The notes beneath the pieces were generated by a model. The model saw only the letters and a list, made by a program, of their open reading frames with translations, was not told the DNA's origin and did not search any database. The translations under genes were made by a program, and so were the position numbers. 64,000 nt of DNA, taken from sequence record PV763136.1; one strand, given 5' to 3'. Source of the stretch: Escherichia phage vB_EcoM_YN3. Every line of letters starts with the position of its first letter. The stretch's first letter is position 1. Below, one piece after another: positions 46,754-47,576 of this stretch.

Positions 46754-46783
46754 TTGACAAAAGCCACAAGGATGTGGCATATT
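46754..46783 (+). promoter_or_regulatory. sigma70-like promoter (weaker -10)
   Basis: TTGACA - 18 nt - CATATT, upstream of the small Cys-rich ORF and nrdG. Confidence 0.4.
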
Positions 46784-46813
46784 ATTGACACACAGTGAGC
46801 TAGGAGGTACAGT

Positions 46814-46930
46814 ATGTCTACAGGTATTTATAAAATTTGCAAGTGTGGTTGTCGTTGCAACCTTCGTTGGTGCAAGGCACTGGACGATTTTATTTGGCAT
46901 TGCCCTAAATGTGATGCGGAGTATATATGA
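46814..46930 (+). CDS. small Cys-rich zinc-ribbon-like protein
   Basis: 38 aa MSTGIYKICKCGCRCNLRWCKALDDFIWHCPKCDAEYI; AGGAGG RBS 7 nt upstream; stop overlaps nrdG ATG. Confidence 0.4.
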   Translation: MSTGIYKICKCGCRCNLRWCKALDDFIWHCPKCDAEYI

Positions 46931-47400
46931 ACATTGCCGGATACACAGAAATATCTTACACCGAAGGGCCAGGTATTAGAACTGCCTTGTGGGTATCTGG
47001 GTGCCCACACGCTTGCCCTGGTTGCTTTAATCAGGCATTTTGGTCAAAAGATAAGGGGAGAGAGTTCACTGAAGAAGACTTGCAAAAAATCTTGTCAGAT
47101 TTAGATAATCCGTCTGTGTGCGGTATCTCTCTGCTGGGTGGAGAACCTTTAGCATACTATAATGAGCCAGATATTATTAGCCTGATGGAGAAAATTAAGG
47201 AAAAATTTGGTGACAAGAAAACTATTCTTGTATATACTGGGTTCACATTTGACCATATCTCTAGTGATGTTCTTAAACTGGCTGATATCATCATTGACGG
47301 TAAGTATGTAAAAGATTTACCAACCAAGAAACCGTTCCGAGGTAGCGATAACCAAAGAATGTTTAAAAAAGTAGCAGGCGGTTGGGTTCAGGTAGACTAG
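46927..47400 (+). CDS. nrdG: anaerobic RNR activating radical-SAM protein
   Basis: GCPHACPGC radical-SAM Cys triad near N-terminus; 157 aa. Confidence 0.85.
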   Translation: MNIAGYTEISYTEGPGIRTALWVSGCPHACPGCFNQAFWSKDKGREFTEEDLQKILSDLDNPSVCGISLLGGEPLAYYNEPDIISLMEKIKEKFGDKKTILVYTGFTFDHISSDVLKLADIIIDGKYVKDLPTKKPFRGSDNQRMFKKVAGGWVQVD

Positions 47401-47403
47401 TTG

Positions 47404-47433
47404 TTGACAAAGCTTTGTTAAGTTGGTTATAAT
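47404..47433 (+). promoter_or_regulatory. sigma70-type promoter
   Basis: TTGACA - 18 nt - TATAAT. Confidence 0.65.
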
Positions 47434-47462
47434 TAGCGTAATGAAAGCAGAGGAGGTGCCAA

Positions 47463-47576
47463 ATGGCTAAAAAAGCCTTGAAGAAGGCGTACAAAAAAGA
47501 GATTGCGCTTGAGCTTAAGAAAAAACACAAGCGTGAAAAGAAATATCATGAGGATGAAGAGGGGGTGCAACAGTGA
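47463..47576 (+). CDS. small highly basic peptide
   Basis: 37 aa MAKKALKKAYKKEIALELKKKHKREKKYHEDEEGVQQ; GAGGAGG RBS; stop overlaps GTG of next gene. Confidence 0.35.
   Translation: MAKKALKKAYKKEIALELKKKHKREKKYHEDEEGVQQ

Follow-up and report, generated by a model that had tools for sequence, protein, structure and literature searches.

Two micro-genes flanking nrdG in an rV5-like Escherichia phage: a putatively mobile zinc-ribbon-like cassette and a core microprotein of the Vequintavirinae

In Escherichia phage vB_EcoM_YN3, two very short open reading frames (ORFs) flank nrdG, the radical-SAM activase gene that follows the class III ribonucleotide reductase gene nrdD, and the question is whether they are genes at all and, if so, whether their products belong to the reductase. 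The window analysed here is a stretch of 64,000 nucleotides (nt) of sequence record PV763136.1; a preliminary description, made from its letters alone, had pointed to a 38-codon frame between nrdD and nrdG (here ORF-A) and a 37-codon frame behind nrdG (ORF-B). The window is from a Vequintavirus, an rV5-like coliphage: over the region 46600-47700 it shares 97-98% identity with Escherichia phage FFH2 and with about 120 further records of Vequintavirus (rV5-like) phages. The local order is nrdB, glutaredoxin, nrdD, ORF-A, nrdG, ORF-B, a gene of 116 amino acids (aa) and PhoH. The best overall explanation, and one that we consider fairly probable, is that ORF-A encodes a mobile zinc-ribbon accessory microprotein rather than an obligatory reductase subunit, and that ORF-B encodes a core microprotein coupled to gp119, the 116-aa product.

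Both frames lie where the preliminary description had placed them, with the signals that it had listed. ORF-A (46814-46930, + strand; MSTGIYKICKCGCRCNLRWCKALDDFIWHCPKCDAEYI) begins 6 nt after an AGGAGG Shine-Dalgarno sequence (46802-46807, +), runs for 38 codons and ends in a TGA (46928-46930) that overlaps the nrdG start codon (46927) as ATGA. ORF-B (47463-47576, +), with 37 codons, is preceded by a consensus promoter (47404-47433, +) and by GAGGAGG (47450-47456, +), and the gene after it starts at a GTG (47573) that overlaps the ORF-B TGA (47574-47576). The window has 202 ORFs that begin with ATG and span 30-60 codons; a core Shine-Dalgarno sequence precedes just five of them, ORF-A and ORF-B included. 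Selection on ORF-A was assessed over a 28-codon core in 12 homologous copies by summing over pairs: the proportion of synonymous differences (pS) is 0.53 and that of non-synonymous differences (pN) 0.055, a ratio of 0.10, with variable sites distributed 9/2/20 over the three codon positions. When the window is compared with the Vectrevirus ACG-C91, homology is bounded by the start codon and the stop of ORF-A. For ORF-B, the comparison with locus L012 gives nine synonymous and three non-synonymous differences (pS 0.47, pN 0.033, ratio 0.07), and the frame is retained in divergent genera. Because purifying selection is this strong (pN/pS about 0.1 and 0.07), both micro-ORFs are, on comparative evidence, genuine coding genes in the frames given. 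The view that they are real small genes, with ribosome-binding sites, stop/start overlaps and frames kept in relatives, is thereby upheld.

Existing records are not unanimous on this point. The rV5 type/RefSeq record has, in another frame over ORF-A, a 75-aa ORF114 labelled 'membrane protein' (L018 2474-2701; counterpart in the window 46785-46979, +), the Murica record has a terminator inside ORF-A and no coding sequence, and none of the 12 homologues has a stop in one antisense frame (r1). Such observations would fit chance ORFs lying over a true feature that is the ORF114 frame, the antisense strand or an RNA element, but this can hardly be right. The ORF114 frame contains stop codons in 6 of the 12 homologues and has a pN/pS of about 1, so that it looks like a wrong-frame mis-annotation over ORF-A; ratios of at least 1 were obtained for both alternative sense frames and for two antisense frames. 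The third antisense frame, r1, shares wobble positions with the sense frame and still has the worse ratio (0.24 against 0.10), without conserved boundaries. As for an RNA element, Rfam gave no match across 46500-47800, and the Murica 'terminator' is a 7-bp stem with three GC pairs.

Nor are the two genes unannotated, as had been claimed. Both are coding sequences in FFH2, in BASEL phages and in others, listed for instance as hypothetical proteins in EduardKellenberger (bas59_0164, bas59_0162) and FFH2 (ORF107, ORF109), and both match PHROG families by hidden Markov model: ORF-A matches phrog_20137 with E 6.1e-31 (residues 1-38 on profile positions 1-38 of 38), and ORF-B matches phrog_7670 with E 5.4e-20 (residues 1-37 on positions 1-37 of 46). 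The micro-genes are thus already catalogued publicly, if inconsistently, as the ORF114 entry illustrates. PHROG 20137 and three RefSeq records (NC_024134, NC_041937 and NC_041869) label the ORF-A family 'ribonucleotide reductase'; this label is without homology support and appears to be a name carried over from neighbouring genes. Literature searches found no study of the ORF-A or ORF-B peptides.

What, then, are these genes connected with? For ORF-B the answer comes from its homologues, which were found by DNA searches together with gp119 as an anchor. The ORF-B-partner pair is present in Mydovirus and Henunavirus, which have no nrdDG and in which it lies directly after the glutaredoxin gene; it also occurs in the metagenomic L006 lineage, in a Seunavirus-like locus (L025), where it directly follows nrdG, and in L027. 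The order ORF-B homologue, partner of 116-142 aa and PhoH is found in Mydo, Hena1, L006/L007, L025 and L027, with or without nrdDG, while other genera have an endolysin between the gp119-type partner and PhoH. Since the pair persists in genera without nrdDG, ORF-B is, by gene order, part of an ORF-B/gp119/(endolysin)/PhoH block and does not belong to nrdG, contrary to the link with NrdD and NrdG that the preliminary description implied.

ORF-B is identical to rV5 gp118 in length, mass and isoelectric point (pI), and we see no structural difference between the two: the rV5 genome paper lists ORF118 as a protein of 37 aa, 4482 Da and pI 9.8 (PMC3606486, Table S3/S4), and its promoter P118 has exactly the sequence found in the window (PMC3606486, Table S4), being a RefSeq regulatory feature as well. 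This sigma-70 promoter, TTGACA-18-TATAAT, matches the consensus at 12 of 12 positions and, in the window, lies four nt after the nrdG stop (47400). It is conserved in Vequintavirus, in the L006 lineage and in Mydo, and missing where ORF-B abuts the upstream gene. A profile search returned 39 ORF-B clusters of 37-65 aa, mostly 41-52 aa, across the Vequintavirinae, with the consensus MSKKTLRKAYQKELALELR followed by a basic patch and then by a variable, often acidic tail. The name 'poly-Lys peptide' given earlier is apt for the local variant, a basic protein with 12 lysines, but what is conserved is the motif MSKKxLRKAYxKELAxxLR at the N-terminus: as far as sequence comparison goes, lysine richness is a local feature, and conservation resides in the first 20 residues. 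One variant, P0060, is in another frame immediately after an A-rich run (AAGAAAAAACAC; window 47520-47530), which points either to a sequencing error in the homopolymer or to a site that is truly prone to frameshifts.

The gp119-type gene (47573-47923, +; 116 aa, PHROG 7650) is the constant 3' partner of ORF-B. Its acidic product is modelled by AlphaFold as an all-helical, four-helix protein with a predicted local distance difference test score (pLDDT) of 83, and a fold search with this model gave no significant or informative match. The label 'calcyclin-binding protein' that a gp119-type protein carries in Mangalyan was considered and rejected as probably a non-specific helical-hairpin resemblance. 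We propose that in this phage ORF-B opens a transcription unit driven by host sigma-70 from P118, translationally coupled to gp119 and probably acting in a complex with it, 5' of PhoH (47962-48750, +; a PhoH-like ATPase by the ORF list and homologous records), which ends the conserved block.

ORF-A has a different history, and its sequence is the place to begin. It has seven cysteines (positions 9, 11, 13, 15, 20, 30 and 33), not the eight previously counted. All seven are invariant in the family, as are both tryptophans, G12, L17-R18, L23-D24-D25, P31 and E36-Y37. The second knuckle, CPxC, is invariant, and at the N-terminus there is a Cx(1,2)CGCxC cluster, in which the first knuckle is CxxC in variants of 41-54 aa. 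From a 13-sequence alignment, AlphaFold predicts three strands (residues 16-20, 25-30 and 35-37) with a pLDDT of 70.5, and the top Foldseek matches to this model in the PDB are the N-terminal ribbon of Rpb9, a Nudix ribbon (3cng) and ZifS (8yoz), with template-modelling (TM) scores of 0.69-0.75, root-mean-square deviations of 1.1-1.4 Å over 32-34 residues and probabilities up to 0.99. The earlier description of ORF-A as zinc-ribbon-like is borne out to this extent: a zinc ribbon is its most likely fold, at moderate confidence for a model.

Sequence searches place ORF-A in no known family. Pfam gave no family at E<=1, NCBIfam no match at E<=1 for the 38-aa protein of the window and two far-sub-threshold matches for a 53-aa variant, and Pfam, NCBIfam and PADLOC scans of both micro-peptides yielded nothing above noise. 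In a search of PDB sequences the best match, a Haloferax small CPxCG zinc-finger protein, is insignificant (E 0.16). Rubredoxin was considered and rejected as an identity for ORF-A: it was matched neither in Pfam nor among the PDB sequence matches, and a single CBS-rubredoxin-like chain stands at Foldseek rank 34 with probability 0.13. Like the small zinc-ribbon proteins (Rpb9/TFIIS-type, ZifS 8yoz and Haloferax 8q5b), the 36-54 aa proteins of the ORF-A family have two cysteine knuckles 18 residues apart, the second an invariant CPxC, and a predicted three-stranded sheet that superposes on those of Rpb9, Nudix and ZifS; 8q5b and the knuckle IWHCPKC of eL43 are also weakly similar in sequence. 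Unlike them, ORF-A has seven invariant cysteines instead of four and a first knuckle that is mostly CxC, it has no significant sequence relationship to any family, and its metal binding is a prediction. ORF-A is an orphan family by sequence and probably a new, uncharacterised member of the known small zinc-ribbon proteins.

The family is small. Among 5.8 billion protein clusters, a word-indexed search picked out 14 for ORF-A, and an exhaustive HMMER search of 1.84 billion representatives returned ORF-A's own family only, apart from P0021, a repetitive, junk-like sequence of 248 aa that we rejected. DNA-pattern scans of viral, metagenome and genome collections gave only further Vequintavirus-like contigs, with no bacterial or prophage copy in the genome-contig scan. 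Also rejected were two chance matches to CNLRWC, one off-frame in a tail-fibre gene with an upstream stop (L014) and one off-frame in a GC-rich bacterial contig (L024), and a weak match within the window (56797-56910), inside a 103-aa ORF without the cysteine pattern.

The members of the family, 36-54 aa long, occupy three habitats: Vequintavirus, the related metagenomic lineage L006/L007/L011, and a few SP6-like Vectreviruses. In the metagenomic lineage the protein has 53-54 aa, with a Lys/Glu-rich N-terminal extension, and is encoded directly 5' of nrdG. In the Vectreviruses ACG-C91 (L003 3998-4108) and L008, a related metagenomic contig, it has 36 aa and is encoded between a DUF3310 gene, annotated as a nucleotide kinase, and the DNA ligase gene, overlapping both; no nrdD or nrdG is annotated in ACG-C91, and no nrdDG was called in L008. 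Conversely, the nrdD and nrdG genes of the Seunavirus-like locus L025, from the same subfamily, overlap directly (GTATGA) without ORF-A, and so do those of Phapecoctavirus. ORF-A and nrdG are not adjacent in rV5 and Mangalyan, where two small genes (34 and 78 aa) that the window does not have stand between them; in rV5-type loci (L010 2591-2963; L018 2671-3043) the first product is Lys-rich and the second is labelled 'putative minor capsid protein'. Two odd variants may be recorded here: P0014 joins the N-terminus of ORF-A to the C-terminus of the 78-aa protein in a chimera, and P0004, from phage Alma, is a 61-aa read-through form. Between L006 (5076-5175) and Vequintavirus, the DNA of the ORF-A core is 84-87% identical and that of the adjoining nrdG just some 68-74%; on these identities, ORF-A may have been exchanged more recently than its neighbouring genes.

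Because a phage without annotated nrdDG carries ORF-A (ACG-C91) and a sister nrdDG pair lacks it, this distribution disfavours a tie between ORF-A and the anaerobic reductase, and with it the link to NrdD and NrdG that was implied at the outset. For a dedicated NrdDG accessory subunit, co-occurrence with nrdDG would be expected; what we found is ORF-A without annotated or called nrdDG in ACG-C91 and L008, and nrdDG operons without ORF-A in the Seunavirus-like locus and Phapecoctavirus. The same holds in part for conservation beside nrdD and nrdG in other phages, which had been proposed as a check: the frames of both micro-ORFs are conserved there, but both also occur in phages without annotated nrdDG.

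Several points weigh against the explanation favoured here. More than 100 Vequintavirus genomes, as well as the L006 lineage, have ORF-A between nrdD and nrdG, and in that lineage and in FFH2/Murica-type genomes it stands directly 5' of nrdG. The order nrdD-ORF-A-nrdG could reflect a real link to the reductase, with the NrdDG of E. coli also serving the ACG-C91 copy; E. coli has its own NrdDG. As to the fold, the other four AlphaFold models score just 50-55, the confidence being moderate; no Foldseek E-value is below 0.3, as expected at 38 residues; and the window shares with most Vequintavirus copies a first knuckle that reads CxC in place of the canonical CxxC. For ORF-B, the probable complex with gp119 is drawn solely from conserved adjacency and opposite charge.

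A rival proposal assigns ORF-A to the class III ribonucleotide reductase as a dedicated accessory, produced alongside NrdG by way of the ATGA overlap. On this view it could be an Fe/Zn protein like rubredoxin that donates electrons to the [4Fe-4S] cluster of NrdG, or else a protein docking NrdG to NrdD. About 120 Vequintavirus records share the order nrdD-ORF-A-nrdG with the divergent L006/L007/L011 lineage, ORF-A overlaps the nrdG start in that lineage and in FFH2/Murica-type genomes, and its knuckles (CxxCG in some variants, and ...DDFIWHCPxC) recall those of rubredoxin and zinc ribbons. Class III reductases have their metal site in the C-terminal zinc ribbon of NrdD, as is known from the phage T4 enzyme. 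The NrdD of the window (nrdD, 44627-46750, +; 707 aa, from the ORF list and named NrdD in homologous records) has a putative site of this kind, CxxCG...CPxCG, about 200 nt upstream of ORF-A in the same operon, and the ribbon aligns over both ORF-A knuckles. The alignment is not significant, however (hhalign probability 9.6%), and the spacing differs by four residues; since the site is intact in NrdD itself, ORF-A is not a fragment displaced from that protein. With no Pfam match at E<=1, to rubredoxin or otherwise, with ORF-A upstream of DNA ligase in the two Vectreviruses, with directly overlapping nrdD-nrdG pairs that do without it and with two genes between it and nrdG in rV5 and Mangalyan, we think a dedicated accessory role unlikely.

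How ORF-A could come to lie in such different places is suggested by the Vectrevirus junction between the DUF3310 gene and the ligase gene, which is polymorphic for three alternative micro-genes. In ACG-C91 the occupant is ORF-A; in K1E (L029 599-715) and ten other Vectrevirus records it is a different 38-aa, four-cysteine zinc-ribbon-like peptide (MTCPNCGSEETEHVVMSDTYHFYFCHSCDTTIEEEEAV); and in vB_EcoP_B (L030 599-772) it is a 57-aa protein without cysteines. The variable segment is exactly the body of the micro-ORF, the flanks being conserved up to the TATG and ATGA junctions, and the 3' end of every cassette at this junction holds the ribosome-binding site for the downstream gene. The K1E peptide resembles ORF-A in slot, length, 18-residue knuckle spacing and start/stop overlaps, but it has four cysteines, is confined to 11 Vectrevirus records and has no detectable homology to ORF-A beyond the knuckle (hhalign probability 36% over eight columns, not significant). 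Judging from these junctions, ORF-A behaves as a self-contained, horizontally mobile micro-gene cassette of about 110 bp, moving between a myovirus and a podovirus.

In relatives, homing-endonuclease genes have been inserted repeatedly between nrdD and ORF-A, starting directly 3' of the short terminator-like hairpin GCCACAAGGATGTGGC that follows nrdD (46763-46778, +, in the window; the junction was defined in typing phage 14). This junction and nrdD itself form a hot spot for homing endonucleases (L004 1279-2439, L010 1246-2406, L007 4279-4971, L011 2411-2920 and L002 1-348), which include a 386-aa DUF723/treble-clef/T5orf172 type and several HNH types. Typing phage 14 has, along with the endonuclease gene, L006-type sequence in place of the original 5' end of ORF-A, a pattern that suggests co-conversion.

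If the position of these micro-genes is so regular, could translation itself be their only purpose? They might be leaders that are translated for the sake of re-initiation on nrdG or gp119, their peptides being functionless. Both indeed end in a 4-nt overlap (ATGA and GTGA) and hold a downstream ribosome-binding site in their last codons, in ORF-A a GGAG for nrdG (46927-47400, +; 157 aa, with Pfam Fer4_12 and Radical_SAM) within the conserved Ala-Glu-Tyr codons, and three unrelated micro-ORFs share the one coupled Vectrevirus junction. A leader would nonetheless leave the amino-acid sequence free to vary, and the low pN/pS of both genes shows that it is not. The seven cysteines, both tryptophans and the LDD of ORF-A are invariant in two unrelated genomic contexts, and the N-terminal motif of ORF-B is invariant across genera whose DNA has diverged to saturation. 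Because the amino acids of the peptides are conserved, a pure leader is disfavoured, and we regard it as quite improbable.

Under the explanation that we favour, a mobile accessory microprotein, the ORF-A cassette would enter translationally coupled junctions, bringing with it a ribosome-binding site and an ATGA overlap for the downstream enzyme gene, which is nrdG here and DNA ligase in ACG-C91. As the cassette supplies that gene's ribosome-binding site and overlap, ORF-A would be made together with the enzyme. The N-terminal Cx(1,2)C and C-terminal CPxC knuckles probably bind metal; the hairpin between them has three more cysteines, which may serve as a second metal site or pair in disulfides. 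The product would be an accessory protein that probably binds a partner protein or nucleic acid.

A more specific proposal, to which we give only a small chance, is that ORF-A is a metal-binding microprotein acting on nucleotide supply or host defence and spread between unrelated coliphages as a 110-bp cassette. It could, for example, inhibit a host factor that depletes deoxynucleoside triphosphates or targets nucleic acids, by positional analogy with T7 gp1.2, which is encoded just upstream of ligase; or it could boost the NrdDG of host or phage in anaerobiosis, as a redox or zinc cofactor. If this were true, the Vectrevirus kinase/ligase junction would be a hot spot that swaps alternative zinc-ribbon microproteins.

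Two observations on the surroundings may be added. Beyond PhoH, a second, near-consensus sigma-70 promoter (TTGACA-17-TATTAT, 48795-48823) lies 5' of a 103-aa gene at 48854, in a position that matches rV5 P121. In addition, about 19 'Campylobacter phage' records (MG0656xx; host given as C. jejuni) are some 97% identical to E. coli Vequintaviruses across the locus; they are of this same E. coli phage type, and their C. jejuni host labels look doubtful.

The practical value of these results lies mainly in annotation, in that both micro-genes merit consistent calling. They do not overturn current understanding, but ORF-A and ORF-B are tractable candidates for small-protein studies. ORF-A offers a clean example of a coding cassette of about 110 bp that enters, as its junctions suggest, translationally coupled gene pairs, and ORF-B is a core microprotein found throughout the subfamily Vequintavirinae.

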